Source: Myxococcota bacterium (GTDB lineage Bacteria; Myxococcota_A; Polyangia; Nannocystales; Nannocystaceae). From it: 64,000 nt of DNA. Below, piece by piece: positions 24,334 to 64,000 of the stretch. The stretch is from NCBI GenBank assembly GCA_039028615.1, contig JBCCHT010000003.1, positions 64,001-128,000 of the forward strand. The letters are read 5' to 3'. The notes beneath the pieces were generated by a model. The model was not told where the DNA came from. It ran no database searches and was given only the letters and a program-made list of their open reading frames with translations. Within the stretch, counting starts at the first letter, position 1. Every line of letters starts with the position of its first letter. The translations under genes were made by a program, and so were the position numbers.

Positions 24334-24540
24334 CGCCGCCGTCATTCGGCCTGCGTCGAGCCTCTCGAAAGAACCGTCCGTGGCTGGCCCGTTCACCACC
24401 CCGCGGACCGTAGAAAACGCGCTCTGCCCGCAGTTCGTCGGATGAGGATGGGGCGGCCTGTGGGAAGCAACGCGGCAAGGGGTGCGCGGTTGACGGGGCG
24501 GCAAGCACGGCCGGCGGAAGGACTTGCTAGGATTCGGCCG

Positions 24541-25161
24541 GTGCCGCCGACCGACTTGGAGTTGCTCGACGCCTGGCGCAACGGGGACCTCGATGCGGGG
24601 GATGCTCTGTTCAACCGGCATTTCGCTGCGATCCATCGGTTCTTCCGAAACAAGGTTAGCGACGGCCTCGAGGATCTGGTTCAGCAGACGTTCATGGCCT
24701 CCGTCGAGGGCCGCGAGCGATTCCGTAATGATTCCAGCTTTCGAACGTACCTGTTCGGCGTCGCGCACAACCTGCTGCGCGATCACTACCGGGCACAGCG
24801 ACGCGAGCCGGAGGCCTTCGACTTCGGCAAGAGTTCCGCGGTCGACGCCGGAGCCGGCCCGTCGACCGTTGTGGGCAAGCGCCGGGAGGAGCGGCTGCTG
24901 CTCGAGGCGCTGCGCCGCATCCCGCTCGATAGCCAGATCGTGCTGGAGCTGTACTACTGGGAAGAGATGTCCGCGTCGCAGACGGCAGCGGTCCTCGGCG
25001 TTCCAGAGGGCACGGTGCGCGGGCGAGTGCGGCGAGCCAAGCAGCTGCTGAAGGGCGAGCTGGCCAAGCTGGCCGAGTCACCCCAGGAGCTGGAGACCAC
25101 GGTCTGCAACCTCGACCGCTGGGCCGAGGGCCTGCGGCAGCAGATGTCCGACGGCAAGTAG
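24541..25161 (+). CDS. ECF sigma-70 factor
   Basis: EDLVQQTF, FRTYLFGVAHN, LGVPEGTVRGRVRRA. Confidence 0.92.
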   Translation: MPPTDLELLDAWRNGDLDAGDALFNRHFAAIHRFFRNKVSDGLEDLVQQTFMASVEGRERFRNDSSFRTYLFGVAHNLLRDHYRAQRREPEAFDFGKSSAVDAGAGPSTVVGKRREERLLLEALRRIPLDSQIVLELYYWEEMSASQTAAVLGVPEGTVRGRVRRAKQLLKGELAKLAESPQELETTVCNLDRWAEGLRQQMSDGK

Positions 25162-44323: not shown

Positions 44324-46951
44324 CTACTCGGTCGGCTCCGCCCCGAGGGTCGTGAGCAGGCGATCGATGTCGGCGTCGTGGCCCAGGGCGGCGACGTTGC
44401 GGAGGTGGTCCGCCGCCCGTTGCCGTGCGGTGCGGGCCGCCTCTTCGTTGCCGCGGTCGTCTTCGATCATCGCCACGCCGAGCTGGGCGCGAGCTAGGTG
44501 ACGCTCGACCCACAGCGGTGCCTGCTCACCCGCGGCCGCGATCACGGCCTCGAAACGCGCTCGGGCGGCGTCGCGCTTGCCCCCGATTCGCTGGATGTGG
44601 CCGCGGGCGACCTCGAGCATCGCGGTGTCCGGGGGCGGGGTCTGTTCGGCGACCGCGACCAGCCGCTCGAACGCCTCCACCGCGGTGTCTTGGTCCTGCA
44701 GCTCCAGCGACACCAGACCGAGCGAGTACAGGCACTCAAGTCGCATCGTCGGCTCTTCGGACTGCATGCGGTCGTAGGCTTCGCAGATGGCAGCGCGGGT
44801 CTGCTGGGCTTCGCGGGGGTCGGCGATGGCGTGGCTGTCGACGTAGCGGGCGCCCAGGGTCATGGAGTGGGAGGGGCCCAGGGCGGCCTCCAGCTCCTGC
44901 ACTGCGCGGTGGGTGAAGCGACGTCGGGCGTCGGCCTGCGGCTCGAGCAGCGCGAGGTTGACGAGGATGTTGGTCAGCTCCACCTCGCTCAGCTCGGCGT
45001 CTTCCTTCACGGCGAGCGCTCGCTCGAAGCGCTCGCGGGCGCCCTTGCGATCACCCGTGGCCAGGTGAGCCGTGCCCGCGTTGTTGAGCAGCAGGGCCCG
45101 GCCGAAGGCCGCGTGCGGGAACCGGCGGGTCATGGCTTCGGCGAAGGGCACATGGCCGAGGGCCTGGGCCTCGGGGTCGCGGCCCATGGCGGAGGCGTGG
45201 ATGTGCCGGGCGAGTGCTTCGAGGGCCACGGTGTCCAGGCCGATCTCGAAGGCGGACAGCGAGGCGTGATGCAGGGGCTCGGTGGAGCCGGCGAAGTCCT
45301 TGGTCTGCAGCAAGATCCGCCCCTGCGCTAGCTCGGCCTCGGCCAGGGTCGGCGCGTGACCGAGGGCGCGGGCTTCGGCGACGACCGTCTCCACGTCGGC
45401 CAGCGCTTCGGCGTAGCGCCCGGCGTGCTCGCGTGCCTGCACGGCGATGAGCCGCTCGCGGAGCTGTCGGACCTGGGCGGCGATTTCGGGCGGGGGCGGG
45501 GCCCGCTCGGCCTCGAGCCAGCGCGGCTCGTCGCAGCGCGCCAGCGAGGGCAGCCCCTCCGTCACGTTGACCACGCGGGGGAGGGTCTTGGCTGTCGTCT
45601 CGCCGAGCACGCCCACCGCCTCACCGAGCGCCAGCCGTCGCTCGTCGAAGCAGGTCATGCGGCGGTCGTACTGGGTGTCGGAGTACTCGCCGCGAAGGTG
45701 TCCCAGGCAGGCATCGCGACGCATGCTCACCCATTGGTCGCCGTAGTCGTCGAGAGCGGCGTCGACCAGCGGCTGGGCCTCGCGAGCATAGGGGCGCTCG
45801 GTTCGGAGCAACGCCTCGGAAATGGCTTGGCGGCGGGGCTCGTCCCAGACCTCGGCCAGCGCGGCCTCGTTGCCTGTGCACGGCTCGATGGTCTCGACCG
45901 GCGGCGTCGGGGCGAGGCCCCATGCGCTCAGGCCCACGCCGAGCCCCAGGGCCACGGCGCCCGGGATGGCGAAGCGTCGCCACGGGGAGATCAAGCAGCG
46001 CCCGAGCGCTTCGGCCACGTGCTCCATCGAGGGAAAGCGGCGCTTCGGATCCGTCTGCAGGCCGCGCTCGATGATGGCGATCAGGCGCTTGGGTACATCG
46101 GTCTCGGGGAGCGCCCGGCGATCGCCCTGAGCAATGGCGTGCAGCAGCGCGAACACGGTCGCCCCGGCGAAAGGGCGCTGCTGGAACAGCGCCTCGTACA
46201 AGGCCACGAAGAACGAGAACTGGTCCGAGTGCGCGTCGCCCAGCGCCCCGCGGACGACCTCGGGCGCCATGTAGGCCGGCGTGCCGCTGAGGCCGGAGCG
46301 AGCGCTGCGGTCTTGTTCCTCTTCCGATTCCCCGAGCGTGGCGGAGTTGGTCAGGGTGCGGCGCAGGGTCTGGTCGATGCGCGCGATCCCGAAGTCGCTG
46401 ACCTTGACCTCGTTGGACTCGCTGAGCAGCACGTTGTCGGGCTTGAAGTCGCGATGCACGATGCCCTCGCGGTGGGCGGCATGCAGCCCCCGCGCGGCGG
46501 CCTCGTACGCACGCACCACCTCGGGCCAGGGGCGCGGCTGCTGGTGCCAGTCGCGGAGCGTGCCCCCGAGGATCCGCTCCATCGCGATATAGACCTGGTC
46601 GCCTTGCTCGCCGAGCTCGAACACGGTGACCACGTTGGGGTGCACCAGCCGGGCCATGACCCGCGCTTCGATCATCAGCAGCTCGCGGTGGGCCGAGCGC
46701 TGGTGGGGGCGCAGCACCTTGAGCGCGACCTCGCGATCGAGATCGGGGTCTCGCGCGACGAAGACCTCGCCCATGGCGCCCTTGCCGAGCAGCCCGAGGA
46801 TCTCGTAGCGACCGATCGTTCGCTTCGTGGGCGCGGACGTGCCCTTGCCGAAGAGCTTGGCCATGACCGACTCCTCGACCTCGCGCTGACGCTCGGGGGA
46901 GACCGGGCCGTCGGCGAGACCGTCGAGCGTGGCGACTTCGTCCTCAGTCAC
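44324..46951 (-). CDS. Ser/Thr kinase with TM and TPR domain
   Basis: [30 protein letters not shown]. Confidence 0.95.
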   Translation of the reverse strand: MTEDEVATLDGLADGPVSPERQREVEESVMAKLFGKGTSAPTKRTIGRYEILGLLGKGAMGEVFVARDPDLDREVALKVLRPHQRSAHRELLMIEARVMARLVHPNVVTVFELGEQGDQVYIAMERILGGTLRDWHQQPRPWPEVVRAYEAAARGLHAAHREGIVHRDFKPDNVLLSESNEVKVSDFGIARIDQTLRRTLTNSATLGESEEEQDRSARSGLSGTPAYMAPEVVRGALGDAHSDQFSFFVALYEALFQQRPFAGATVFALLHAIAQGDRRALPETDVPKRLIAIIERGLQTDPKRRFPSMEHVAEALGRCLISPWRRFAIPGAVALGLGVGLSAWGLAPTPPVETIEPCTGNEAALAEVWDEPRRQAISEALLRTERPYAREAQPLVDAALDDYGDQWVSMRRDACLGHLRGEYSDTQYDRRMTCFDERRLALGEAVGVLGETTAKTLPRVVNVTEGLPSLARCDEPRWLEAERAPPPPEIAAQVRQLRERLIAVQAREHAGRYAEALADVETVVAEARALGHAPTLAEAELAQGRILLQTKDFAGSTEPLHHASLSAFEIGLDTVALEALARHIHASAMGRDPEAQALGHVPFAEAMTRRFPHAAFGRALLLNNAGTAHLATGDRKGARERFERALAVKEDAELSEVELTNILVNLALLEPQADARRRFTHRAVQELEAALGPSHSMTLGARYVDSHAIADPREAQQTRAAICEAYDRMQSEEPTMRLECLYSLGLVSLELQDQDTAVEAFERLVAVAEQTPPPDTAMLEVARGHIQRIGGKRDAARARFEAVIAAAGEQAPLWVERHLARAQLGVAMIEDDRGNEEAARTARQRAADHLRNVAALGHDADIDRLLTTLGAEPTE

Positions 46952-47586
46952 TGCTGTCCGTCGAGCTCCTGCCGTACCTTCACGGCCCAGGTCTGGAGCC
47001 CCATCACGGTGGACTGGGCTTGCTCGGGGCTCTCGGCGAGCTCCTCGACGATCTGCGCCAGCCGGGCCTTGCCTCGCCGGATGCGGGTGTAGACCGTGAA
47101 CTTGGAGATCCCGAGCAACTCGCCGATCTCCGCGCCCTCGAGGCCCTCGAGGAAGGCGAGCTCGAGGACGATCTGCTGGTCGAGCGACAGTCGCCGCAGA
47201 CCTCGGACGAGCAGCACGGTTTCTTGCTGCCGCGAGACCATCGAGGTCATCGATTGCGAGGTCGAGTCTTCACCCACGAACACGTCGCTGAAGTCGTCGA
47301 GCTCGCGCTTGCGCTTGACCGACTTGCGGTAGTGACGACGCAGCTGGTTCATGGCCGCCGCGAACACGTAGGAGCGGAAGGCGCCCGCGTCGTCGACCCG
47401 GTCTCTGCCCTGCGTGCAGGCGAGCATCGTGTCGGAGACGAGGTCGGCCACGTCGTCGGAGTTGCGTACCTTGTTGTGGAAGAACCGGGTGAGCAGGCCG
47501 ACGTAGCGCCGGACGAGCTCGGCCCCCGAGCGCTCGTCGCCACCCCGCCAGGCGTCGAGCAGCTCCCAGTCCTCGGCCTTGCTCAT
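46948..47586 (-). CDS. ECF sigma-70 factor
   Basis: DWELLDAWRGGD, DLVSDT, FRSYVF, LGISKFTVYTRIRRG; 4-nt overlap with the downstream kinase. Confidence 0.9.
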   Translation of the reverse strand: MSKAEDWELLDAWRGGDERSGAELVRRYVGLLTRFFHNKVRNSDDVADLVSDTMLACTQGRDRVDDAGAFRSYVFAAAMNQLRRHYRKSVKRKRELDDFSDVFVGEDSTSQSMTSMVSRQQETVLLVRGLRRLSLDQQIVLELAFLEGLEGAEIGELLGISKFTVYTRIRRGKARLAQIVEELAESPEQAQSTVMGLQTWAVKVRQELDGQQ

Positions 47587-47657
47587 CGCGGCGAGGCTAA
47601 CGTGGACCCGCGGCCGTGCGCCATAGGGAGGAGGCCGACATTCGGCGTGGGCGGCAC

Positions 47658-50600
47658 TCAGGGGTGCTCTTGGAGCCACTGCTCGAGTTGCTCGACTTGG
47701 CCCGGCTGCACGAAGTCGGCGGTGCCCAGCAGCTTCAGGGCATCACGTACGAGGGCCTTGGCGCGCTCGCGGTCGGTGTCGGTGGCCCACAGCGCCCGCG
47801 CCAGCGCGAAATCGATTTCAGCCTGGTTGGTGGGCATCTGCTCGCTGCGACTGGCCATCTCCTTGGCCCGCTGCATCCACGGCAGAGCGGTTTGCGCCTG
47901 GTCGCTCGCCAGGTACGCCTCGCCGACGAGCATCATCAGGGCGCCGCGACCGTCTTCGGGCAGCAGCGCTCCGTCGTTGATGGTGTCGACCAGGGGCGCG
48001 GCCTCGCGAAGGATGAGGTCGTGGCGCCCCACGTAGTGGGCTTCCATCGCCACCCCCAGCACCGACCAGGCGACGCTGGAGTGGGCATCGGGAAGGGTGA
48101 CACGGCGGATCTTCAGGCCGCGCTCATGCAACGCCAGGGCGCGCTCGTGGTCGCCCAGCTCCCCCACGGGCAGGGCCAGGGTGTAGACCGCGTCGGCGAT
48201 GCGGGCGTGGTCCTTTCCCAGGCTGCGCTCGTACACCCCGAGCGCCTCTTCGTAGTTGTCGATCGCTGCCTTCATGTCCCCCATGGTGGCGAGGGTCTGG
48301 CCCCGGTTGATGAGCGCGTTGCCGATGTCGGGGTGATCGGTGGGCAAGGTCTTGCGGCGAATCGCCAGGGCCCGGTCGCTGATCTTCAGGCCTTCGTCGA
48401 GGCGACCGGTGACGCGACTGACGAGCACGAGGTTGTCCAGCGGTGCGCCGAGCTTGCCGTCGAGCCCGGCGGTGTCGAAGATCTCGACCGAGCGCTCGAG
48501 GTGCTCGCGGGCGCGCTCGTACTCTCCGATGTTGAGCAGCGCCGCCGCGAGGTCGTTGTGGGCCGAGCCGGTCTCGGGGTGATCGAGCCCGTAGGATTCC
48601 TTGTAGCGGGTCAGCACCAGCTCGAGGTTCTCGGTCGCGCGCACGGGCTCGCCGAGGCGGTCGTGGACCACGGCCATCGTCTTGAGCGTGTCGCTGGTGC
48701 GGGAGCTGTCGTCGCCGAGCACCCGCCGAAACACCTCGAGGGCGGAGCTCATGCGCTCGAGCGCCTCTTTGTAGTTGCCGGCCCCGAACTCGAGGGTGCC
48801 GAGGTTGAGCTCGATGCGCGCGTGCTGGACCTCGTCGAGCGCGGCCGCATTGGCGAGGATCTCCGCGTGCCGGGCCCATCGCCGCCCCTGGGTGTGTTGG
48901 GCGAGATCATGGCCGACCAGCTCGACCAAGACCCGCGCCGCGTACGAAGCCAGCGCGTCGGCACCGGCCGCCCGCGCGACGAAGAAGCCCTCCTCCAGCT
49001 GGGCCGCGGCGTCGTCGTAGCGACCGATCGCATATAGCGTGCGGCCTTGCCTCACCAGGGCGGAGGCCAGCAGGTGCTTGTGCTCCAGCGCGCGGGCTTC
49101 GGGGAGGTTGTCCTCGAGGAGCGCGAGGGCGTCCTTGAAGTGGCCGGAGGCGCGGAGGTTCGATGCTTGCTCGAGCCGGGCCCGGATCTGAGCCACACGC
49201 TCGGCGAGCTCCGGGTCGTCGGGCAAGGGCATGCGGTGCCGCAGCTGCGCCGGGTCGGCACAGGGCGTGACGCGAAACCGGGCGGTGACGGCTTGGATGG
49301 CCCGGTTGAGCACGGCCGCGTCCGCCTCGGCCAACAGCCGTAGCTCGCCGCGCAGCATGGTCAGGGTGGTGTCGAAGCACTCGTCCTGTCGGGCGTGCAG
49401 CGAGGGGGGCACCGAGTTCGGCTCGGCGCAGCTTTCGTAGCGCAGGTCCTTCCACTGCTGCGCGCGCTCGTCCAGGCGCGGCTCCAGGTGGGCCCATGTC
49501 GACGGGGCGTAGCTCAAGCCGGTCTCGAGCATGCCTTCTCGGGTCTGCTGGCGGACCTCGTCGTTCCAGACCTCGTCGATGGCGGCGGCCGAGCGACGGC
49601 ACTCGGCTAGGCGCTGTCGTTCCACCACCAGGTTGGAGCCGTACACCGCCCCGATGCCCGCGAGGCCGAGTCCCACCGCGACGATGCGGCGTCGGGTTCG
49701 GGTGGGATCGCGGCTCAGGGCGTCGTCGAGGTCGGCGAGCGAAGGCCAGCGATCGGCCGGCTTGGGCGCGAGCCCTCGTACCACGATCTCACGCAGCCAT
49801 CGCGGCACGCGGGAGCCGGCCGGGACCGACTGGAACTCGCCCCGAGTGACGGCGGCGACGAGTGCGGGCAGCGAATCGGCAGGGAAGGGGCGCTGCCCGT
49901 ACAGCGCCTCGTAGAGCGTCACGCAGAAGGCGAACTGATCGCTGCGAGAATCGGTGGGCCGACCCGCGTGCTGCTCGGGCGCCATATAGGCGGGCGTACC
50001 CATCACCGCGCCCGTGCGGGTGAGGTTGGCCAGGAACTCGGACGAGGTCAGCGAGCTGGTGCTCACCTGCGAGCTGATCTCGGGGTCGATGCCCGTCTGG
50101 CTCCCCGTGGGCGTGGCCAGGCCGAAGTCCATCACCAGGATGCGCCGCGGCGGGCCGCCGCCCTCGCTCGGCTCGATCATGAGGTTGTCGGGCTTGAAGT
50201 CCCGATGGACCATGTCCTTGACGTGGGCGGCATGCAGCCCGCGCCCCGCCTCGCGCATCACCGCCACGATCTCGCGCCAGCTTCGGTTCTCGCTTCGCAG
50301 CCACTGCTGAAACGTGACCCCGTCGATGAACTCCATCGCCACGAAGACCTGGCCCTCGTGCTCGCCCACGTCGTGCACGGTGATCACGTTGGGGTGCTGC
50401 AGGCGCGCGAGGGCCTGGGCCTCGCGCATCAGCCGACCGCGCCCCTTGCTGGTGTCGATGGAGCCGATCAGCGCGGGTCGGAGCAGCTTGATCGCCACAC
50501 GCCGCTCGAGCTCTGGATCGTAGGCTGCATACACGACCCCCATGCCGCCCGAGCCCAGCACGTCGAGCACCACGTAGCGACCCAAGGAGTCACCCTTGAG

Positions 50601-50687
50601 CAGGCGAACGGGCTCCGACGACGAAGAATTACGACCGGTGGCATCGGTCTCCCCCAGCAGGGTGTCTCCGAACTCGGTCTCCTCCAC
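47658..50687 (-). CDS. Ser/Thr kinase with TM and TPR repeats
   Basis: [33 protein letters not shown]-type TPRs. Confidence 0.95.
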
Positions 50688-51746: not shown

Positions 51747-52838
51747 TCAGACGGGTCGATACACGAGCACGTCGCAGATGGGGTCCGAGCCCACGCCTTC
51801 CTGCCCCGTGATCATGATCCGCAGGTCGTCCCCGCTCCCTACGCTGGTGATGCCCCCCGCGAACCCGACGTACTCGGGCGGGAGCTCGGTGACCGACAGC
51901 GCTTGCAGGTCGGTATCGAAGCTCGCGATGGCTCGGGTCGGTGCATCGAAATCGCTGAGGGTCACGTACAGGGCACCATCGGCGGCCAGCGTCAGGTAGA
52001 TGGCCGCGGTCAGCGACACGGGCCCGGCGACCTGAGTGCCGCGGGCGTCGTACTTGCGCAGGTTCACCGGGTCGCCGCTGTTGAGGGGGTTGGAGACGAT
52101 CGAGGTCAGCACGTAGTGATTGCCGCTGGCATCCACCGCGACGTCGAGCGGCACCTCGTGCACGTCGATCGAGCCCACCACCGTGCCGCTGCCCGGCTCG
52201 ATGCGCAGCACCTGGCCGTTGCCGGGCGCCCCGTTGCACGCGTACAGCGACTGTTCACCGTCGACCACTGCGTGAGTCAGGCCCAGCAACAGCGCGTCGG
52301 GAATGGTGACGCCGTCTTCGCCCCACAGCGGCTCGCCCGTGGCCCCGTCCCACTTGAGCAGGCGCTCGCCGCTGGTATTGCCCCCCTGGCTGACGACCAC
52401 GCCGCCCGCGTCGTCGAGCGACAGGTCGGTGCCGAAGCTGGTCGAGATGCTCGGGTTCGCGACCGTCTCGAGCATGCCGTCCGCGTAGCGCTCGAGATCG
52501 TCCTGGTTGTAGTTCCACAGGAAGATCTCACCGCCCGCCCCGACGTCCATACCCTTGGTCGAGACCACCGAGTTCACGTCGATGATCGTGTCGAGCTCGA
52601 GCTGCCCCGAGGGTGGATCGCCCGAGGTGCTCTCGTCGGCGGAAGTCTCCGTTCCGGCCTCGGTCGTGCCCTCGTCGGTCTCGTCGACACTGCCGCTGGA
52701 GTCGGTCAACGGCGCAGCCGTCGTCGTGGTCATACCCGTCTCGCCGGCCGCCGTGTCGGCTCCGCTTCCGCTCTCGTTCGCTTCGGGGGTGCAGGCCAAC
52801 AGCAGCGAGGCGATGGCGGTGAGGCGAGACCAGGTCAT
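51747..52838 (-). CDS. Lipoprotein with probable beta-propeller (NHL-like)
   Basis: Lipobox LLAC, T/S/E linker, PLDVAVDASGNHYV-type repeats. Confidence 0.75.
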   Translation of the reverse strand: MTWSRLTAIASLLLACTPEANESGSGADTAAGETGMTTTTAAPLTDSSGSVDETDEGTTEAGTETSADESTSGDPPSGQLELDTIIDVNSVVSTKGMDVGAGGEIFLWNYNQDDLERYADGMLETVANPSISTSFGTDLSLDDAGGVVVSQGGNTSGERLLKWDGATGEPLWGEDGVTIPDALLLGLTHAVVDGEQSLYACNGAPGNGQVLRIEPGSGTVVGSIDVHEVPLDVAVDASGNHYVLTSIVSNPLNSGDPVNLRKYDARGTQVAGPVSLTAAIYLTLAADGALYVTLSDFDAPTRAIASFDTDLQALSVTELPPEYVGFAGGITSVGSGDDLRIMITGQEGVGSDPICDVLVYRPV

Positions 52839-52897
52839 GCCCGAGTCTATCAAGTCCGACGAACGCACCGAGTCGTGGGGGCTATGATGTGCGCGCC

Positions 52898-53680
52898 GTG
52901 GGCGACACCTACGATCCCGAGCTCTACGATCTGTTTCATCCGCCCCAGGCGGAGGACAGCGACATCGCGCTCTACCAGCAGCTCGCGTGCGACAGTGGGG
53001 GCCCGGTACTCGAGCTGGGCGTGGGCACGGGGCGGACGCTGCTGCCCATCGCCCGTGATGGCATCCCGATCGTCGGCATGGATACATCGCCTCGCATGCT
53101 CGAGGCGTTGCGCCAGCGGCTCGCCGCCGAGGAGCCCGAAGTCCGCGCCCGCGTACGAATCGAGAACGGGGACATGCGGCAGTTCTCGCTGGACGAGACC
53201 TTCTCGCTGATCACCATCCCGTTTCGGGGATTCCTGCACAACCGCACCAAGGGGGATCAGAAGGCCTGCCTGCGTGCATGCCATCGGCACCTGCGCTCGG
53301 GCGGGGAGCTGGCCTTCAGCGTGTTCCACCCTTCACTCGAGTTCGGCCGCGACGACGACTCGCTGGTCTCCGGGGTGTGGCGCTGGCGAGGCAGCCGCGA
53401 GCGCGAAGACGGAGGCCACGTCGATCTGTCCGAGTGCACGATCTACGACACCGAAGCGCAGCGGCTCTCGGCTCGCCTGCGCTACGAGGCCTACGACGCC
53501 CGCGGTCGCCTCGAGTACGCCCACATGCATCGCCTCGAGCTGGGCTACCTGTACCCCACCGACATCCGCGGCCTGCTCGGCGAGATGGGCTTCGTCGACG
53601 TTCACATCGAGGGAGGCTTCGCGGGCGCTCCCTTTGCCGAGGACGCCAAAGAACTCATCGTGCGGGCGCGTCGACCGTGA
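52898..53680 (+). CDS. Class I SAM-dependent methyltransferase
   Basis: VLELGVGTGR, GMDTSPRML, GDMRQF, HLRSGG. Confidence 0.92.
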   Translation: MGDTYDPELYDLFHPPQAEDSDIALYQQLACDSGGPVLELGVGTGRTLLPIARDGIPIVGMDTSPRMLEALRQRLAAEEPEVRARVRIENGDMRQFSLDETFSLITIPFRGFLHNRTKGDQKACLRACHRHLRSGGELAFSVFHPSLEFGRDDDSLVSGVWRWRGSREREDGGHVDLSECTIYDTEAQRLSARLRYEAYDARGRLEYAHMHRLELGYLYPTDIRGLLGEMGFVDVHIEGGFAGAPFAEDAKELIVRARRP

Positions 53681-54644
53681 GCCCCAGCTCGTTCATCAGC
53701 ACGCGCAGGGGCTCTTCGACCCCGCTTCGATGCAGGAGGCTGAGGACGGGCTCGATGACCCCGTTGAAGATCCGCTCGAGGGCCGCGGCATCGTGCAGCG
53801 TCATGGCGCGGATCTTGGTGATGCCGTCGCGATAGGCCTCGACCATGCGATAGACGCAGTACGAAGCCGCCCCGGAGGGAAAGATGATCGCCTGGGCGGC
53901 GGCGAGGGCTTCGGCGTCGTCGCGGGCGCGCTCGACCAGGGACTCGAAGTGGTCGCGATCGGGGTGCGGCGCGGTCAGGCCGTACAGGATCGCGAGGTTG
54001 TTGCGCGGCCGAGCCCAGTCGGCACTGGCTGGTTGGTCGAGCGCATCGCGGAGGTCGTCGCTCACCTGGATGAGCCGTCCCAGCGGGCCGCCCAGGGCAT
54101 CGAGGGCATCGGCCAGCGCAGGCGAGGCACCGCCGATCGTCCCGCCCATGGCCAGTGCACAGCCGAACAGCGGCGGGGTCTTGAGGTCGACGACCCGCCA
54201 GTACTCGTCCTCGTCGGCGCAGGGCTGGATGTCGATGTGCTGGGCCATCGAGGTCTGCATGTTCATGCGCGCCAGCCGAACCGTGAGGTCGTGCTCTACT
54301 GCCGCCTCGAGGCCGCCCTCGGCGATCGCTCGCGATGCCGCCGACTGGAAGCTGAGCGCCATGTTGGCGACTTGCCCCGGTCCCAGCGTGCGATAGAGGC
54401 CATCGGGTTCCTCGTCGAGCATGTCGTCGACGAGGTGGATGGCCCCCAGCATGGAGAAGATCGCGATGGCGGCGGGCAGCGAGCGCTCGGGTTCGCTACC
54501 GACCGCGACGCAGGCCCACGGACAGTAGTCCCAGCAGGGCATGCCGCCGCGGAGCACCGTGCGCAGGACGAAGTCCCGCATCGGCGGGATCCCGTCCAGT
54601 TCGGGCATCGCCAGCAGACTCTGCTGGATTTGTTGCAGCGCCAT
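53655..54644 (-). CDS. Isoprenoid-synthase-fold (ComQ-like) prenyltransferase
   Basis: HLVDDMLD, AQHIDI, LKT, IQVSDDLRD; lacks GKxxR and the post-FARM RR. Confidence 0.85.
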   Translation of the reverse strand: MALQQIQQSLLAMPELDGIPPMRDFVLRTVLRGGMPCWDYCPWACVAVGSEPERSLPAAIAIFSMLGAIHLVDDMLDEEPDGLYRTLGPGQVANMALSFQSAASRAIAEGGLEAAVEHDLTVRLARMNMQTSMAQHIDIQPCADEDEYWRVVDLKTPPLFGCALAMGGTIGGASPALADALDALGGPLGRLIQVSDDLRDALDQPASADWARPRNNLAILYGLTAPHPDRDHFESLVERARDDAEALAAAQAIIFPSGAASYCVYRMVEAYRDGITKIRAMTLHDAAALERIFNGVIEPVLSLLHRSGVEEPLRVLMNELGLTVDAPAR

Positions 54645-54662
54645 GCGCGGGCGAAACGGAGA

Positions 54663-54977
54663 CTAGCTGGTGGTCTCGGTGGGCGTCGCCTCGTGCCAGA
54701 CCGTCCAGGCGGCGAGCTCGGAGCGGGTGTCGGTCGCGTTCCACACCTGCCAGCCATGCATCTGCGACTGGGCTTTGGCGGCGCCCCAAGGGGTCCAGGC
54801 GCTGAGCTGAGCGCTCTGCTCTTGGGCGCCCCAGGGGTCCCAGTGGTTGAGCTGGGCGTTGGTGCCCCCGGTCAGCTCGCCATCGTGCTGGTAGTCGCAG
54901 ACGCGGCGCAGCGCGACGGCCCAGGGATCATCGTCGCCATTGGCGATCAAGCGCTGATGAAAATCCTTGATGTCCAT
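54663..54977 (-). CDS. Putative multicore RiPP precursor (104 aa, four WxxW repeats)
   Basis: Leader ending ELTGG; W46/49, W61/64, W76/79, W91/94; 18 nt from the prenyltransferase start. Confidence 0.75.
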   Translation of the reverse strand: MDIKDFHQRLIANGDDDPWAVALRRVCDYQHDGELTGGTNAQLNHWDPWGAQEQSAQLSAWTPWGAAKAQSQMHGWQVWNATDTRSELAAWTVWHEATPTETTS

Positions 54978-55126
54978 GCCGAACAACCATGCCTGATGTC
55001 GCGATGAGTTACTCGGCGTTCGCTCACGACTTGGACACGAATCGTGCCGCCCGATTTCGCTTTTCGTGCCAAGTCGCGGACTCGCCCTGAAGGTCCGTAT
55101 CCGGAACCCGGGGCTGCGACGGTCGT

Positions 55127-55552
55127 TCACTCGGACGAGACGGTATCGGAGCCTGGTGTGATCTCGACCTCGACCCACGCTGGCTCACGCTCAGGCACGT
55201 CGAAGCTGACCCGCACGTTGTCTTCGGGGGGGGCCTTCACATCGGCGGGGCGACTGAAAGAAAAGTGGCCGTCCTCGTCCGTGGTGATTTGAAAGTCGTG
55301 TTGCCACCCGGTCCAGGAGACCGAGAGGTTGACGTAGGGGAGCTCCGCATCCGCGGTGTCCACAGTGCAACGCGCACGCCCCTCGAGGGTGAGTCCCTCG
55401 GTGTCGGAACCTATCGCCGACAGTTCCGTGAAGGTCGCCGCGTCGGCCGGACACTTCGCCCCTTCGAAACCGTATATGTAGTCCGGCTGCTGGACTGTGC
55501 TGCAACCGATGAGAGGGAGTGCGAGTACTGCTACCGATTGGAGTCGTTTCAT
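55127..55552 (-). CDS. Hypothetical lipoprotein
   Basis: MKRLQSVAVLALPLIGC; TTDEDGHFSF beta-sandwich motif. Confidence 0.7.
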   Translation of the reverse strand: MKRLQSVAVLALPLIGCSTVQQPDYIYGFEGAKCPADAATFTELSAIGSDTEGLTLEGRARCTVDTADAELPYVNLSVSWTGWQHDFQITTDEDGHFSFSRPADVKAPPEDNVRVSFDVPEREPAWVEVEITPGSDTVSSE

Positions 55553-55944
55553 TTTCGTTGCCAGTTGGTGCTCGCGATGCCTACCGGCATCGAGTTCCAC
55601 AGCTCACCGGTGCGGGGGGCCGTGGATGAACGCGTTGTCGGCCGAGGACCACGTTTCGGTGACGGTCGCCGCCCGCGTTGTTCCAGAACGAGCTGCCTTG
55701 GATGGACCCTGAGGTGGGTGACTACGGCGAACGTCATGGGGTGGAGCCCGGCTCGGTCGCTCAGGTGGCTCGAGCCGGGGCATGGGGTAGATGACGACCT
55801 CCGCCCCAATCATTCATCCCGATCGATTTTTCCTCGCAGTGGATGGAGACCCGGCCGGTCGTGGGATGGAGGAGACCGTCCGACCACGATGGCGCGATGG
55901 GTAACGTCGAAGTCGAAGCCGCCGAAATCCGACGTTCCGCAGGC

Positions 55945-57207
55945 TCAGCCACCAAGCGGCGTATAGAGCACTTGGCACCCCGGCGGTAGGTCCTCGGCCC
56001 AGTGCCAGGCCAACAGCGAGCACTCGGAGCCGCGCAACGCCTGACGCAACGAGACGAATTGCTGGACGGTCATCCCCGAGTCCTCGATGCGAACCGTGAT
56101 GTCGGAGGAGATCGTCGCTGCCCATCGCTCGATGCCGGAAGGGTCGGCGATCGTCGCACGGAGCTTCACTTCACCGTGTGCGGTCTCGCGAACCTCGAAG
56201 TGCTCGCCGTTCACACCCACGACGAACGACGCCGACTCGAGCGGTCGATCGTCGATGATCGTCTCCGCGCCGAAGTGGCGTTCGCCCAGCTGGACCACCA
56301 GCACGTAGTCTGGCCCCTTCAGAGCCTCCGCGATCGACACGAGGGCCGACGCAGGCGCATCTCGGCTGGCAAAGACCAACACTTGCCACTCGTAGTCGTC
56401 CGTGGCAGGCGACTGCACGCCGATCGCGGAGAATTGCTCGGTCAGCCAGCGCTCGAGCTCTGCACCGTCGTCCGGGACCCCGCCACGGAGGGGGAGGGTC
56501 GGCCCTCCCGGCAATGAGATCTCGGTCGCGCTCACCTGCACGGCGATCCCCTCGCGCAGGACGGCACCCTCGGTCTTGGCCTCGGGCAACACCGCCTCGG
56601 TCTGTACCGACATCCTGGGGTAGGCAAACAGCCCGATCGCCTCACGAGCGAGCGGGGCGGGGATCTCGGCGTCGAGCAGCACGCGATGGAAGATCAAGCC
56701 ATCAACCGATACGCGATCGAGCACCCATGGCATGACATCACCCAGCTCGATGCGGTCGAACTGGCAGCGGCGCATCACCTCCGGCCGGCGTTGTTCGGGA
56801 GGCATCGTGCCGATTTCATCGAACACCGTGGTGTCGACACAGACTCGAGCGCGCCAACGTCGGTAGCGCTCGGCCTCGGCCTCGGTGGCCTGGTACTCGA
56901 GCAAATTGGGCCTCGCGGGATGCTCGTCCCTGCCCCTCCAGGCGAAGATCTCCAGTCGATGCTTCAGCTCAGGTGTCAGGCCGGGACAACTCCGGAGCAG
57001 CAGGTCTCGAACCATCGCATGACCCAAATGACGGTCTGGGGTCAGGTCTCCGTACCAGGCTGGATGTTGGTTCCGCAGCGCCTGCGTGCGCGTGACTCCC
57101 TCGCGGAGGACGTCAGCATTACACTCGATCCGGTCCCTCTTCGAGCACCCCACGACAAGGCTCGCGGACAGAAGGCAGCTGATGATCGAGGTCCTCGAGC
57201 CTCGCAT
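55945..57207 (-). CDS. Hypothetical lipoprotein with degenerate ExbD-like C-terminal domains
   Basis: Lipobox VVGC; VLVFASRDAPASALVSI; MTVQQFVSL. Confidence 0.6.
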   Translation of the reverse strand: MRGSRTSIISCLLSASLVVGCSKRDRIECNADVLREGVTRTQALRNQHPAWYGDLTPDRHLGHAMVRDLLLRSCPGLTPELKHRLEIFAWRGRDEHPARPNLLEYQATEAEAERYRRWRARVCVDTTVFDEIGTMPPEQRRPEVMRRCQFDRIELGDVMPWVLDRVSVDGLIFHRVLLDAEIPAPLAREAIGLFAYPRMSVQTEAVLPEAKTEGAVLREGIAVQVSATEISLPGGPTLPLRGGVPDDGAELERWLTEQFSAIGVQSPATDDYEWQVLVFASRDAPASALVSIAEALKGPDYVLVVQLGERHFGAETIIDDRPLESASFVVGVNGEHFEVRETAHGEVKLRATIADPSGIERWAATISSDITVRIEDSGMTVQQFVSLRQALRGSECSLLAWHWAEDLPPGCQVLYTPLGG

Positions 57208-59733: not shown

Positions 59734-60390
59734 TCAGGCGGCTTGCTCGAGCCCGCCGTCGCCGGGCAGCCCGAACTCCTTGCGAACCGCGGCCAGGGGC
59801 TCGGACCAGCGATGATCCCAACGGACGCCGAACAGCGGCTTGGCGGCGCGCCCGATGTTCCAGCCCCGCGTCACCGCTTCCATGGTGATCGCGATGTCCT
59901 CGGGGTGCTTGATCGTGGTGTGCAGCAGCCCGGCGGAGAGGATGGCCAGCGGAGGAGGGCCCTCGATCTGCGCCAGGTAGAACGACTGCAGCCCCAGCTC
60001 ACCGGGCACGTCCGTCTCGAACCCCGTGAGCACGTGCCAGATGTCGTGGGTCTGCTCGAAGTGCGAGTTGAGCCAGCCCATGCCGTCCTTGGGATGACGA
60101 CGAAACAACGCCGCGGGGTCGAGGCCATTGGCGCGGAGGTGATCGGCAAACACCCGCCCGAGGGAGCCGGGCGGCAGCCGTCCCAGCGTGTCGAGATCGG
60201 GGCACTCCATGGACCACGGATTCGCCAAGAAGGCGGCGATGGCCGGGTTGCCGCTCAGTTTTTCCAGGGCCTCGGGGTATTCGCGCTGGGTGGACTCGAT
60301 GAGGTCGAAGACCTTGTCGAGCTGGTTGGGGTCGCGAACCAATTGGACGTAGGTCCAGGCCGCGCGAAGGGTCTGTAGGGGTCCGGGCAT
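59734..60390 (-). CDS. Coq4-family protein
   Basis: LPPGSLG; THDIWHVLTGFETDVPGE. Confidence 0.85.
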   Translation of the reverse strand: MPGPLQTLRAAWTYVQLVRDPNQLDKVFDLIESTQREYPEALEKLSGNPAIAAFLANPWSMECPDLDTLGRLPPGSLGRVFADHLRANGLDPAALFRRHPKDGMGWLNSHFEQTHDIWHVLTGFETDVPGELGLQSFYLAQIEGPPPLAILSAGLLHTTIKHPEDIAITMEAVTRGWNIGRAAKPLFGVRWDHRWSEPLAAVRKEFGLPGDGGLEQAA

Positions 60391-60474
60391 GAGCGTCCCT
60401 TTTTTCGATTGCCTCACCATCCAGGATGAGGCCACGCTGTGGACCAGCAACTCGCGTTTGCTCAGTTCGGCTCG

Positions 60475-61092
60475 ATGCCCACAAACACCCAAAATCGCCG
60501 TCGTAGACCCCAGCAGGACCGGTCTCGGTCCACGGTCGAGGCCATCGTCGATGCAGCCGCTCAGATTTTGGAGGCGCAGGGTCCCCAACACGCCACCACC
60601 AACCACATCGCCGAACGCGCCGGGGTCAGCATCGGGACGCTCTACCAGTACTTCCCCAACAAGCAGGCGCTGTTCACCGAGCTGGCGCGGCGCTTCATCG
60701 AGGAGCTGGGCACGGCCACCGAGGAGTCGCTCGAGAGCATCTCCATGGGGCCGATGCAGGAGGTGGTGCCACAGTTTCTGCACACCCTGGGCCGGTTGCA
60801 CGGCACCTCGCCGCGCCTTCGCAGCTTCCTGTTTCAGCAACCGGGCAGCCAGGTGCTCATGCGCGACTTCAACGAGCGGATCGAGGCGGTGGTCGCTCGC
60901 GTGCTGGCGCGGCGTCCCGAGTTTCGCGATGGCAATCCCACGCTGACGGCCCAGGTCGTGGTGCGAGCGGTTGACGGCGTGATGCGAGACACCACCCTGC
61001 GCGAGCCCGAGCGGGTCCACGAGCGTGCGTTCATCGACGAGCTGTCGCGTCTCGTGCTCGGCTATCTCATGCTGAGCGCCACCGGGGGCTGA
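60475..61092 (+). CDS. TetR/AcrR-family regulator
   Basis: PQQDRS; TTNHIAERAGVSIGTLYQYFPNK. Confidence 0.95.
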   Translation: MPTNTQNRRRRPQQDRSRSTVEAIVDAAAQILEAQGPQHATTNHIAERAGVSIGTLYQYFPNKQALFTELARRFIEELGTATEESLESISMGPMQEVVPQFLHTLGRLHGTSPRLRSFLFQQPGSQVLMRDFNERIEAVVARVLARRPEFRDGNPTLTAQVVVRAVDGVMRDTTLREPERVHERAFIDELSRLVLGYLMLSATGG

Positions 61093-61099
61093 GGCCGGC

Positions 61100-61798
61100 T
61101 CAGCCGATCCCGAGCCGTCGCTTGAGCTCGGTGACCAGGCGTCGTCCCACCGCGGCATGGCTGCCGTCGTTGAGTTCGACCCGGGTGCTGCCGCCGTCCG
61201 CATGCAGGGCCACGACGGCGTGGATGTTGACCAGCTCGGAGCGGTGCGTGCGGAAGAAGCCGTGCGCGCTCAGTCGCTTTTCGAGGCTGGCGAGGCTGTC
61301 GTCGAGCACGAGCTCCCGTCCCGCGTGGGTGAACACGGTGTACTTGTCCTCCGCGTGGAAGCGGGTGATCTGGGCGGCATCGATGACGTGCACGGTGGCC
61401 CCGTCGCGGGCGGTGATCCGCGGGGGCCCGGACGCGGCGGGATCGGGTGCCGCCGTGCGGGCCCGGGCGCGGGCGATCGCCTCGGCGAGGCGGTCCTTGG
61501 AGATGGGCTTGAGCAGGTAGTCCACCGCGTCGACCTCGAAGGCGCGCAGGGCATGCTCGGCGTGGGCGGTGGTGAACACCACGGGGGGCAGGCTGGGCTC
61601 TTCGGCCAGCTCGAGGCCGTCCATCTGCGGCATGTCGATGTCGAGCAGCAGCAGGTCGGGAGGCGAGGCGCGGACCATGTTCAGGGCCTCTTCACCATCG
61701 GCGGCTTCACCCGCGACCTCGACTCCGTCCATGCGCTGGAGCATGCGGACCAACCGGCGGCGGGCGGGCGCTTCGTCGTCGACGACCAGGACTCTCAT
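61100..61798 (-). CDS. LytTR-family response regulator
   Basis: VVDDE, LDIDMP, TTA, DYLLKP, FFRTHRSELVN. Confidence 0.95.
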   Translation of the reverse strand: MRVLVVDDEAPARRRLVRMLQRMDGVEVAGEAADGEEALNMVRASPPDLLLLDIDMPQMDGLELAEEPSLPPVVFTTAHAEHALRAFEVDAVDYLLKPISKDRLAEAIARARARTAAPDPAASGPPRITARDGATVHVIDAAQITRFHAEDKYTVFTHAGRELVLDDSLASLEKRLSAHGFFRTHRSELVNIHAVVALHADGGSTRVELNDGSHAAVGRRLVTELKRRLGIG

Positions 61799-62886
61799 GA
61801 TGCGCGGCTTTGTGCGGGATGGGTGCGGGGCACGACGAGCTCGACTCGATAGCCACCGTCGATGCCGGGGCCGGCCGAGAACCGAGCCGCCTTGCCGTAG
61901 AGCAGCTTCAATCGCTTGGCCACGTTGGCGTGACCGACCTTGGTGCCCGGGGACTGCGAGTGTCCGGGGCCGTCGTCGCGGACCTGGAAGCGGAGGTTGT
62001 CGCCCTCGGCCGTGACCTGCACCCAGACCTTGCCGCCTTCGCGGCGGGCCGCGATGCCGTGCTTGACCGCGTTCTCCACCAGGGGCTGGATCAGGAAGGG
62101 CGGCACGTCGACCGACTCGACGCCGTCGTCGACGTCGACGCGGCTGCTCAGGCGCTCGCCGAAGCGGAGCTCCTCGAGGGCGAGGTAGCTCCGCACCGCA
62201 TCGAGTTCACGGCGGAGGCTGACCTGGCCCCGCTCGGCGCCCTCGAGCGAGTAGCGCAGCAACGCGGACAGGCGCTCCACCGCCTCGACCGCGGCCTCGG
62301 AGTCCTCTTCGGCCAGCGTGGCCACGGTGTTGAGCGCATTGAACAGGAAGTGCGGGTTGACCTTGGCCTGGAGGTTGTCGATCTGGGCGCGGAGCAGGGC
62401 TTGTTGGGCTTTTTGCTCGCGGAGCTCGACGGTACGGATGCGCTCGAGGAGCCGGTCGTAGGTCACGCTGCCCATCATCACGATGGCGGTGATCACCACT
62501 GCTACGCGCCAGATGTCCTCGCGGTTGATCGTCACGCGTACGTCGGCGAGGAGGGTGAGGTGCAGCAGGCCGAGCGCCAGCTCCACGCCGATCAGCACCC
62601 CCACGATGACCGAGATGCCATGCGCCGCCGCCCGCCGCAGCGGGCCGCCCTCGATGAGGGTCGTACCCCAGCCGTACACGTAGATCGCGGTGGTGGCCAT
62701 GCCGATGCACACCGACAGCAGCAGGTTGGCCCCGAAGACGATGAACCACCGCGCCCACGGCTCGTCGTCTCCGTTGAGGGCGAAGGTCAGGATGGTCGCG
62801 ATCAGCAGGTGTGACCACCACTGCCCTCGAAGCGCGCGGATGTAGTCCGCGTTCCGTTCGAGGCGGCTGTTGTGGAGCGAGGTCAC
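61795..62886 (-). CDS. LytS-family sensor histidine kinase
   Basis: 4 TM; LQAKVNPHFLFNALN, QPLVENAVKHG, DDGPG. Confidence 0.92.
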   Translation of the reverse strand: MTSLHNSRLERNADYIRALRGQWWSHLLIATILTFALNGDDEPWARWFIVFGANLLLSVCIGMATTAIYVYGWGTTLIEGGPLRRAAAHGISVIVGVLIGVELALGLLHLTLLADVRVTINREDIWRVAVVITAIVMMGSVTYDRLLERIRTVELREQKAQQALLRAQIDNLQAKVNPHFLFNALNTVATLAEEDSEAAVEAVERLSALLRYSLEGAERGQVSLRRELDAVRSYLALEELRFGERLSSRVDVDDGVESVDVPPFLIQPLVENAVKHGIAARREGGKVWVQVTAEGDNLRFQVRDDGPGHSQSPGTKVGHANVAKRLKLLYGKAARFSAGPGIDGGYRVELVVPRTHPAQSRAS

Positions 62887-63052
62887 GGGGAGGTTTCCGA
62901 GTATAGCGACTGCTCGGGACCGCCCGGCACCGAGGAACCGGGGGCCGACGAGCGGTGCCCCTGCCCGGACGAACGGTCGCGCGGAGGCGACCGGCGGCGG
63001 GGCGAGCCGACGGCTGTCGCGTCGCGCGGCGGGGAGCGCGTTGGCGTGCCGC

Positions 63053-64000
63053 TCAGATGCCGCTGCGCTCGCACGCCAGGATGCGCTCGAAGGTCGACCA
63101 CGCGGGGCCACCGACGGCGCGCAAGCGTGCGGCGAGCAGGCGGTTGTCGAGCGCCCGGGTCAGTCGCTCGTAGGGCGCGGACTGGCGTCGCAGGTCCCAC
63201 AGGCGCTGGCTCAGATGGTCGACCTCCCCGCGAATCTCGAGGTAGTCCCGATAGCTCGGCGAGTGCTCCAGGTGCTCGGCGATCGCGTCGTGCTGCTCCG
63301 CGATGACGTGGGGTTGCTCGGGGTGCCAGGGGTCGTCGAGCACGGGCCAGCGCGCGAGCAGGTCGGCGGCGGCACGGCGGTAGGCGTAGTCCTCGTCGCG
63401 CTGGGCATCGTCGAGGCGGCGGGTGACCGCCTCGAGGTCGTCCCCGAGGCGCTGAAGCTCGACGTAGGCCTGTGCCTCGTTGCCCTCGAGGTGCAGCTGC
63501 CGAGCGAGCGCCGACACCACGGCGTCTTCTTCGGGCAGGCTCACCTCGAGCTGGGGGCCCTTGGTCGGCGCGGCGTGTCGGAGCCAGCGCTCGGCGGTCG
63601 TGGTGGGCACGTCCGCCGACGACGAGGCGATGCGGACTCGGGTATGGGCCTCGAGCAGGGAGATGTGCCGATCGCCATCGAAGTCGAACTGCTCGATCGG
63701 CTGCGGGTGCCCCTGTCGATCGCGCCCGCGCAGCGCGTTGAGAAAATGCAGCCCGTAGCCCTCTTGCGCCGCGCGATCGGGGTTGGGATCGCAGCCGGTC
63801 GCTTCGAGATCCCACGGGGCGGAAAACAGCCCGCAGCGCTGGCCCACGCTGGCCCCCAGCTGGGCGTCGGCGCCTTGGAAGACCAGCTCGCCGAACCCCC
63901 CGGAGAAGCAGGTCGTGGCCACGACGCGGACCGGGCGGGGGCTTCGGTCGAGGCGCTCGGCCAGGTCGACGACCGCGAGCTCGCTCTGCTCCCACAGCGA
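63053..64000 (-). CDS. Hypothetical protein, possible clan CD (C13/caspase-like) peptidase with helical tail (5' truncated by window)
   Basis: VRVVATTCFSGGF; ATGC; DFDGD..ISLLEAH. Confidence 0.6.
   Translation of the reverse strand, partial: SLWEQSELAVVDLAERLDRSPRPVRVVATTCFSGGFGELVFQGADAQLGASVGQRCGLFSAPWDLEATGCDPNPDRAAQEGYGLHFLNALRGRDRQGHPQPIEQFDFDGDRHISLLEAHTRVRIASSSADVPTTTAERWLRHAAPTKGPQLEVSLPEEDAVVSALARQLHLEGNEAQAYVELQRLGDDLEAVTRRLDDAQRDEDYAYRRAAADLLARWPVLDDPWHPEQPHVIAEQHDAIAEHLEHSPSYRDYLEIRGEVDHLSQRLWDLRRQSAPYERLTRALDNRLLAARLRAVGGPAWSTFERILACERSGI

Follow-up and report, generated by a model that had tools for sequence, protein, structure and literature searches.

A two-gene locus of a Nannocystaceae myxobacterium predicted to encode a four-core precursor peptide and its tryptophan prenyltransferase

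We analysed a 64,000-nt stretch of DNA from a myxobacterium of the Nannocystaceae (positions 64,001 to 128,000 of contig JBCCHT010000003.1, assembly GCA_039028615.1; hereafter the window) and studied two adjacent genes on its minus strand, which are predicted to encode a precursor peptide and a peptide tryptophan prenyltransferase that modifies it. The precursor gene (P0001, 54663..54977) encodes 104 aa with four WxxW motifs, and the enzyme gene (P0002, 53655..54644), which begins 18 nt past the precursor stop codon, encodes a 329-aa protein with a trans-isoprenyl diphosphate synthase (IDS) fold. The gene pair, its leader and WxxW cores, the residue pattern of the enzyme and the neighbouring genes are observed directly. 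We consider it very probable that the precursor is prenylated and, if so, rather probable that its cores are separated; for the whole reading, in which four prenylated lipopeptides are excised and act outward, we estimate a probability of roughly one half. A preliminary description of the locus, made from the sequence, had proposed a two-gene system of peptide and prenyltransferase, and this is supported by the family-wide pairing of the two genes, the predicted docking of the leader on the enzyme, an in-frame fusion of both and the loss of isopentenyl diphosphate (IPP) ligands from the enzyme.

The enzyme family comprises 280 clusters at 50% identity (E up to 1e-30), and its pairing with precursors was studied in 157 loci, 4 from a search of the order, 78 genomic (from the best 80 of 175 matches) and 75 metagenomic (from the best 80 of 290). 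A leader-only profile, seeded on a Trp-free leader pattern, gave 224 matches in these loci, 223 of them on the strand of the enzyme, and 215 were then followed by WxxW, a motif present in 2.9% of random 35-aa windows; after one iteration there were 232 matches, and none on reversed sequence. With seven loci read by eye added and two duplicate loci dropped, the precursor was present in 143 of 155 loci, and in 132 of the 135 with at least 500 nt upstream, the misses being L046 (precursor 3.8 kb off), L063 and L087. Thus homologues of the enzyme do have Trp-containing open reading frames (ORFs) upstream, nearly always with WxxW and usually with a single one: among 206 distinct precursors, 185 contain one WxxW, 7 two, 3 three, 10 none, and the window precursor is the one with four. 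Two or more precursor genes occur in 71 of 103 loci with both flanks. A profile scan of the order placed the precursor in the same 4 of 73 genomes as the enzyme, plus one weak match inside a long frame, and in P0196 precursor and enzyme are fused in frame, which could be a read-through artefact. In databases the enzymes are named polyprenyl or geranylgeranyl diphosphate (GGPP) synthases and the precursors are hypothetical proteins. In a few precursors WxxxW replaces WxxW (L045:5685-5858 and 7295-7501, L133 and L155), and since both precursor genes of L045 have it, a coupled specificity change is suggested. In P0213 a truncated enzyme runs on into the N-terminal part of the sensor protein described below, which is probably a frameshift or assembly artefact.

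The window precursor (precursor profile E 5e-16) is single-copy in the genome, and its GC content at third codon positions of 0.88 is similar to that of the enzyme gene. Its conserved leader, residues 1–28 (54894..54977, minus strand, as are all features of the pair), follows MxIxxF...ALRxV, close to the family pattern MxIxxFH...ALRxL, and is predicted from the alignment and the modelled complex to be the enzyme-docking element; in 74 aligned precursors, selected for having WxxW, F6 is invariant and M1, I3, L23 and R24 are at least 90% conserved. The first WxxW lies 12–19 residues past the leader throughout the family, and a median of 13 residues follows the last Trp. In the window precursor, ELTGG at residues 34–38 is followed by four 15-aa units, as in the preliminary description: unit 1 (54819..54863, W46/W49), unit 2 (54774..54818, W61/W64), unit 3 (54729..54773, W76/W79, read from the precursor itself) and unit 4 (54684..54728, W91/W94), with the last Trp 10 residues from the end. 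WDPWG of unit 1 likewise occurs at the end of an Aureisphaera precursor and WTPW of unit 2 in a Kordia precursor. Among 50,333 short six-frame ORFs of the genome, 18 have at least three WxxW and 5 at least four, and the even 15-15-15 spacing occurs in the window precursor alone; the four-WxxW precursor is not a product of chance. The units have diverged, with 19–29 of 45 nt and 4–8 of 15 aa identical between pairs. Multicore precursors of peptides that are made on ribosomes and modified after translation (RiPPs), such as those of cyanobactins, carry one leader and then several variable cores. The multicore reading is supported here by units that are diverged yet evenly spaced, and by core identities elsewhere in the family; the window precursor differs from cyanobactins and other multicore RiPPs in that its cores are not separated by conserved recognition sequences, no protease is linked to it and its prenyltransferase has an unrelated fold.

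The Gly-Gly at residues 37–38 (54864..54869) is a possible cleavage site specific to the Nannocystaceae clade. G[GSA] precedes the first core in 5 of 6 precursors of this clade versus 25 of 189 others, GG in 3 of 6 versus 8 of 189, and the closest relative of the window precursor has GH at this position. Hence the Gly-Gly leader, first pointed to as a RiPP hallmark, does not define the precursors across the family, in which residues 1–28 are the conserved part. No Pfam or NCBIfam family matched the window precursor and none matched the 74 precursors consistently; the ComX family PF05952 matched 0 of 74 at E up to 5, no NHLP leader was found among the 74, one of them gave a weak Nif11 match (E 0.11), and the Atlas gave no usable match. 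Nannocystaceae leaders (window 54897-54899 on the minus strand, and the precursors of L002, L005 and L006) contain one to three Cys, which are mostly missing elsewhere in the family.

Residues of the GKxxR, ExxH and RRG motifs bind the substrate diphosphates in chain-elongating synthases, and each of these motifs, RRG being sought after the first aspartate-rich motif, was found in 0 of 238 relatives of 290–350 aa and is absent from the window enzyme. Ordinary chain elongation is left to 8 further PF00348 genes of the genome, and the two captured as canonical controls both carry GKxxR, ExxH and RRG; GKxxR was present in 5 of 6 of a second control set, chosen by its RRG. The aspartate-rich motifs themselves are retained. 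The first, DDMLD (D73–D77, 54414..54428), is the predicted site for Mg and the prenyl diphosphate and is 98–99% conserved. QVSDDLRD (residues 193–200, 54045..54068) comprises Q193 and an intact second aspartate-rich motif (SARM) D196–D200, is 99–100% conserved (D196 99%, D197 100%, D200 100%; QxxDDxxD in 233 of 238), and lies at the positions of Q197/SARM in PalQ and Q216/D219 in Ord1, from which the roles of the pre-SARM Gln and aspartates are taken (PMC10853753; PMC12510300). A family-specific W38 (87%) stands in place of the basic motif, and D209/W210 are 99% conserved. Thus the enzyme has the fold and the two DDxxD motifs of a chain-elongating synthase and lacks the diphosphate ligands, as had been noticed at the outset. 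The enzyme had also been called ComQ-like, which is apt for its likely function; in its motifs it differs, as its second DDxxD is intact where ComQ has a pseudo-SARM (NDxxx). Two relatives, P0245 and P0257 (509 and 641 aa), have two tandem domains of the enzyme family.

The enzyme matches PF00348 only (E 3.3e-11), with no NCBIfam model above its cut-off, so that an isoprenoid-synthase-fold gene directly downstream of the precursor is confirmed. Its structure model (pLDDT, the predicted local distance difference test, 94) superimposes on the GGPP synthase 6kd7 with Z 29.9 and a root-mean-square deviation (rmsd) of 2.3 Å over 292 residues, and on the indole farnesyltransferase Ord1 with Z 26.3 and rmsd 3.3 Å over 284 residues at 19% identity. 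Fold search was rejected as a means of telling prenyltransferases from elongating synthases; the chains of ComQ, PalQ and StheQ were not among the fold-search matches listed.

A predicted complex of precursor and enzyme scored 0.86, compared with 0.00 for the best of three controls, so that the leader is predicted to dock; of 157 solved pairs 116 attain the score mark, as do 2 of 215 mismatched ones, counts that apply only roughly to the alignments used. Prediction runs shared at least 49% of contacts, with a partner pLDDT of at least 47. The confident part of the predicted interface is precursor residues 1–36 on enzyme residues 220–227, 251–265 and 299–319, and the contacts modelled with least error pair enzyme Y221, A225, G258, S261 and Y262 with leader I3, F6, L23, V26 and C27. 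These best-contact enzyme residues are more conserved than the regional mean (0.66 versus 0.50), and within the predicted leader-binding surface, residues 220–265 (53850..53987), G258 is 99%, Y262 94% and S261 86% conserved.

These features suggest how the pair might work. The two-helix leader would dock on the C-terminal helices of the enzyme, so that the flexible cores could reach the active site in turn. By analogy with ComQ, PalQ, StheQ and Ord1, the first motif would hold Mg and a C10–C20 prenyl diphosphate and Q193/D196 would orient the indole, and Mg-dependent forward prenylation at C3 of a Trp in each of the four units would close a pyrroloindoline. Of the two Trp in a WxxW, the second is the likelier acceptor, on weak grounds: in 21 of 214 precursors the chain stops within 3 residues of the motif, as in ComX, and the single-Trp types L072, L078 and L153 resemble the second position. 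Proteases encoded elsewhere would then trim both sides of the cores, for which ComX natto, with an internal Trp and C-terminal trimming, is a precedent (PMC5331326), and four short lipopeptides would be released, each from one WxxW unit. Trp-Trp cross-linking by P450 or radical SAM enzymes was also considered, and no such gene was among the recurring neighbours scanned.

Gene context in other phyla points to signalling. By neighbour clustering, a sensor protein lies downstream in 98 of 104 loci with at least 1500 nt (Thermoanaerobaculia and Anaerolineae), and a REC-EAL protein lies upstream in 85 of 113 loci with at least 1200 nt, ExLxR being present in 74 of 76 full-length copies. The sensor has about 9 hydrophobic segments, then GAF, PAS, HisKA, HATPase and REC; its first extracellular loop is weakly PDZ-like (best E 0.001; Atlas clusters with PDZ in 10–65% of members). 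Bacillus ComP has a predicted topology with a PDZ-like loop after the first transmembrane (TM) segment and a TM bundle (PMC9620489), and for the N-terminus of the sensor the same order of TM, PDZ-like loop and TM bundle is predicted. In two Anaerolineae (L067:1222-3978 and L074:6954-9722) this sensor carries a fused GAF and HD-type (HD-GYP-like) domain where the others have a kinase. Two independent outputs, the REC-EAL and the HD-type domains, thus suggest breakdown of cyclic di-GMP (c-di-GMP); in Thermoanaerobaculia and Anaerolineae, the product would be the ligand of the adjoining PDZ/multi-TM sensor and would lower c-di-GMP via REC-EAL or the fused HD-GYP. The family thus appears to be a signalling system of the ComQXP type in hosts other than Firmicutes. 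The Thermoanaerobaculia operon (L007–L157, e.g. L042:4080-10831 and L145:2749-9945), with REC-EAL protein, precursor, prenyltransferase, second precursor and PDZ/multi-TM hybrid kinase in this order, is a candidate peptide quorum-sensing system with c-di-GMP output. The six sensor-less loci of the 104 are 2 of Nannocystaceae, 3 of Flavobacteriaceae and one of Entotheonella. Two precursors and, in convergent orientation, an ABC transporter are present at the Entotheonella prenyltransferase locus (L061), and an 851-aa open frame of Entotheonella (L168, frame 1), unlinked to the prenyltransferase, contains a distant PDZ/multi-TM sensor (E 5.5e-6) followed, by eye, by GAF and a nucleotide cyclase domain.

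The Nannocystaceae version is different. The sensor profile gave PDZ-only matches in the source genome and nothing more, detected no sensor in the 73 genomes searched from the order, 42 of which have a completeness of 90% or more (positive control E 4.5e-176), and found none in 3 flavobacterial genomes. The enzyme is present in 4 of the 73 genomes with all catalytic residues intact, at 52–62% identity, and the four copies of the pair stand at unrelated sites with no neighbour in common; with 5 candidates scored per genome, no pair was found in 400 other sampled genomes of the phylum or in 400 further Flavobacteriaceae. Nannocystaceae-clade enzymes form one clade (100% support in the SH-aLRT branch test), which quick trees place among sensor-linked lineages, and their precursors are all multicore (6 of 6), with 2–4 units at a spacing of 13–17. 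We infer that in the Nannocystaceae the cassette represents just the producer half, its cores multiplied. Since the source genome lacks the family sensor, the products would be aimed at other cells and would not serve a self-sensing circuit.

Core identities between phyla add to this picture. The sequence AAWTVWHE within unit 4 (54690-54713) is identical (8 of 8) to the C-terminal 8 residues of an Aureisphaera galaxeae precursor, one of three in that species, each with a single core, and a second Aureisphaera precursor ends in NWDPWGV, resembling unit 1. Among 204 other cores, at most 3 of the 6 non-Trp positions of unit 4 matched, and 6 of 6 arose in none of 2000 simulations. That unit 4 is a stand-alone core elsewhere favours separate products. 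Because Aureisphaera is likewise sensor-less, the sharing would show common descent under constraint, or convergence, rather than mimicry. Plesiocystis pacifica SIR-1, strain ST9 and Aureisphaera galaxeae are carriers in culture, which allows a direct search for the product. The three Aureisphaera precursor genes stand in tandem ahead of the enzyme (L043:5238-5916), ahead of them lie genes for a Trans_reg_C protein and, in divergent orientation, an S9/S15/S33-type hydrolase, and the Kordia loci have a TPR or TPR-AraC gene upstream.

Several findings weigh against the reading of four excised, outward-acting lipopeptides, for which prenylation, processing and function are what we infer from genes and models. 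No protease or exporter was found within the operon, as the preliminary description had already stated, and no cleavage motif is common to the core units. In the predicted complex no core Trp is confidently placed, and the fold of the peptide itself is uncertain. PalQ loses activity on an internal Trp (PMC10853753), so internal cores would need a ComQ- or ChrPC-like site. The Gln before the SARM also occurs in canonical synthases and is hence non-diagnostic, and Ord1 does not rank above ordinary synthases among the matches of the enzyme (rank 11 by Z, rank 10 by profile), so that the fold does not decide the reaction. Moreover, there are about 116 distinct enzymes at 90% among 149, mostly of one class, and as the loci are mutually related their counts are not independent. 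Finally, the approximately unbiased test does not reject a tree rooted between the Nannocystaceae clade and the rest (p 0.16), and for this reason loss of the sensor is not claimed as shown; the source genome may also have an unrelated receptor.

Such a receptor is the basis of the first alternative, in which the chemistry is the same and the lipopeptides are a self-signal of the myxobacterium. Most loci of the family are linked to a receptor, Nannocystaceae genomes are rich in kinases and regulators, and a LytTR regulator and a kinase lie 6–8 kb from the pair; a signal of this kind had also been suspected initially. It is nevertheless doubtful, as the lack of any homologue of the family sensor in the 73 genomes, the occurrence of the pair in so few genomes without a shared neighbour, and four differing cores, which would fit a panel of products better than one private signal, all speak against it, and we regard a self-signal as not very likely. 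A different fate of the same chemistry is that several Trp of a single chain are prenylated and that one cut at Gly-Gly, made by an unlinked C39 transporter, gives a multiply lipidated peptide of about 66 residues that is membrane-active or surface-anchored. The clade-enriched G[GSA], the lack of a shared cleavage motif between units, the spacing of 13–17 in every multicore precursor and three C39 peptidase genes in the genome would be consistent with this; these genes are all unlinked to the pair, and no linked C39 peptidase transporter was among the recurring neighbour families scanned. The GH of the closest relative, the stand-alone use of the unit 4 core and the long stretch after the last Trp, which means that most family precursors need two-sided trimming anyway, make a single lipopeptide unlikely.

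The peptide might instead not be the acceptor at all: the enzyme would prenylate free indole or Trp, as Ord1 of the same fold acts on indole (PMC12510300), or make an isoprenoid, and the peptide would bind and regulate it, in keeping with the leader alone being confidently placed on the enzyme. This leaves unexplained a near-invariant WxxW at a fixed distance from the leader, hypervariable flanks, an adjacent extracellular sensor and the multiplication of cores, and the enzyme lacks its IPP ligands, so that a regulator peptide is quite improbable. The patchy spread of the pair and the missing sensor would also suit a signalling-operon remnant that arrived by horizontal transfer and serves no function today, which is highly improbable given an intact enzyme with all catalytic residues in four genomes at 52–62% identity, multiplied cores and a WxxW kept in each lineage. 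Excised prenylated cores acting outward therefore remain our preferred reading. An extended form of it, in which widespread, undescribed prenyl-Trp signalling controls c-di-GMP in Acidobacteriota and Chloroflexota, some marine myxobacteria and flavobacteria keep just the producer half, and the four-pheromone panel, one member of it with the same core as a flavobacterial pheromone, mimics or jams the signals of other phyla while its producer has no receptor for it, is speculative and not very likely.

The pair appears to work like ComQ/ComX and PalQ/PalX, yet on the tested features it belongs to neither. As in Bacillus ComQXPA, an IDS-fold enzyme adjoins a short Trp-containing precursor with no linked protease, and the likeness extends at family level to a membrane kinase of about 9–10 TM segments, the first of which is followed by a PDZ-like loop (PMC9620489), and in the case of ComX natto to an internal Trp with C-terminal trimming (PMC5331326). 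However, ComQ has a pseudo-SARM (PMC10853753; bioRxiv 10.64898/2026.08.29.745113) and this family an intact second DDxxD; ComX has a single Trp and belongs to PF05952, unlike precursors with a conserved leader and WxxW; ComP/ComA output contrasts with a HisKA hybrid kinase and REC-EAL or HD-type output; and ComQXPA includes an adjacent sensor kinase and regulator, which the window locus, with its four cores, and its genome lack. A 2014 census reported no ComQXPA outside Firmicutes (PMC4008528), and the hosts of this family lie outside them. PalQ/PalX/PalP of Paenibacillus alvei are similar in having both aspartate motifs, the pre-SARM Gln and annotation as a terpene enzyme, and PalQ is an IDS-like, leader-assisted peptide Trp prenyltransferase encoded with a histidine kinase; PalX, by its description, differs in its NHLP leader and one strictly C-terminal Trp (PMC10853753), as the window precursor matches no leader family and has internal repeated Trp pairs. 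StheQ/StheX of Sphaerobacter thermophilus (Chloroflexota) likewise represent ComQ-like farnesylation of peptide Trp, with a 69-aa precursor and two Trp near its end; compared by description, StheQ has a pseudo-SARM (N215) and StheX a single core with adjacent Trp at -2/-3 instead of WxxW (bioRxiv 10.64898/2026.08.29.745113). The P domain of ChrPC (Hubrich et al. 2024) is IDS-like and prenylates an internal RiPP Trp with C10–C20 donors, and is fused to a cyclase (both according to the review PMC13290415), whereas no cyclase domain or gene occurs at the window locus. Ord1 (PDB 9V4G) shares the fold and a Gln/Asp pair at the same place; it differs in using free indole as acceptor, in its pseudo-SARM and in lacking a precursor peptide (PMC12510300).

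A search by title and abstract found no publication on this family, most subscription journals being outside its coverage; the family is apparently undescribed, and the mining of Hubrich et al. 2024 or the PalQ supplement may include it. What looks new, judged from the genes, is a sensor-linked signalling family wired to c-di-GMP together with a sensor-less multicore form. In Firmicutes, pheromones made of prenylated peptides are an established kind, and from Chloroflexota one ComQ-like enzyme was recently reported. The present locus leads into a family of 280 or more enzyme clusters (50% identity) that carry the annotation of ordinary polyprenyl synthetases; the genes around them suggest peptide signalling coupled to c-di-GMP in phyla of soil and sediment that are difficult to culture. 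The leader profile is a tool for mining this family. As a substrate of an IDS-type peptide prenyltransferase, the four-core form would be multicore, a kind that none of the searches turned up, and an enzyme guided by a leader to internal WxxW sites would be of use for lipidation.

The surroundings of the pair appear unrelated to it. The pair is flanked by a small lipoprotein-like gene and, at 52889-53680 on the plus strand, a convergent SAM methyltransferase gene that overlaps the 3′ end of the enzyme gene by 26 nt; its best NCBIfam match is a daptide-type RiPP methyltransferase (94.9 bits versus a cut-off of 175). This methyltransferase and three other neighbours were rejected as parts of the system, having counterparts at none of the other 156 loci. 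A promoter scan at the locus found no promoter. The genome (12.3 Mb) is 96.7% complete, and one contig of the marine metagenome run X1, possibly the source sample, covers 52500-56000 with 0 differences. The LytTR response regulator mentioned above, with a His_kinase-family sensor, lies at window 59734-63111 along with a Coq4-domain gene and a TetR regulator, 5–8 kb from the pair, and there is no sign of a link between these regulators and the pair. Elsewhere in the window (21652-25161 and 44324-50687), several Ser/Thr kinase-TPR genes are paired with extracytoplasmic function (ECF) sigma factors, a pairing typical for myxobacteria of the Nannocystaceae, and one of these pairs is backed by Pfam.

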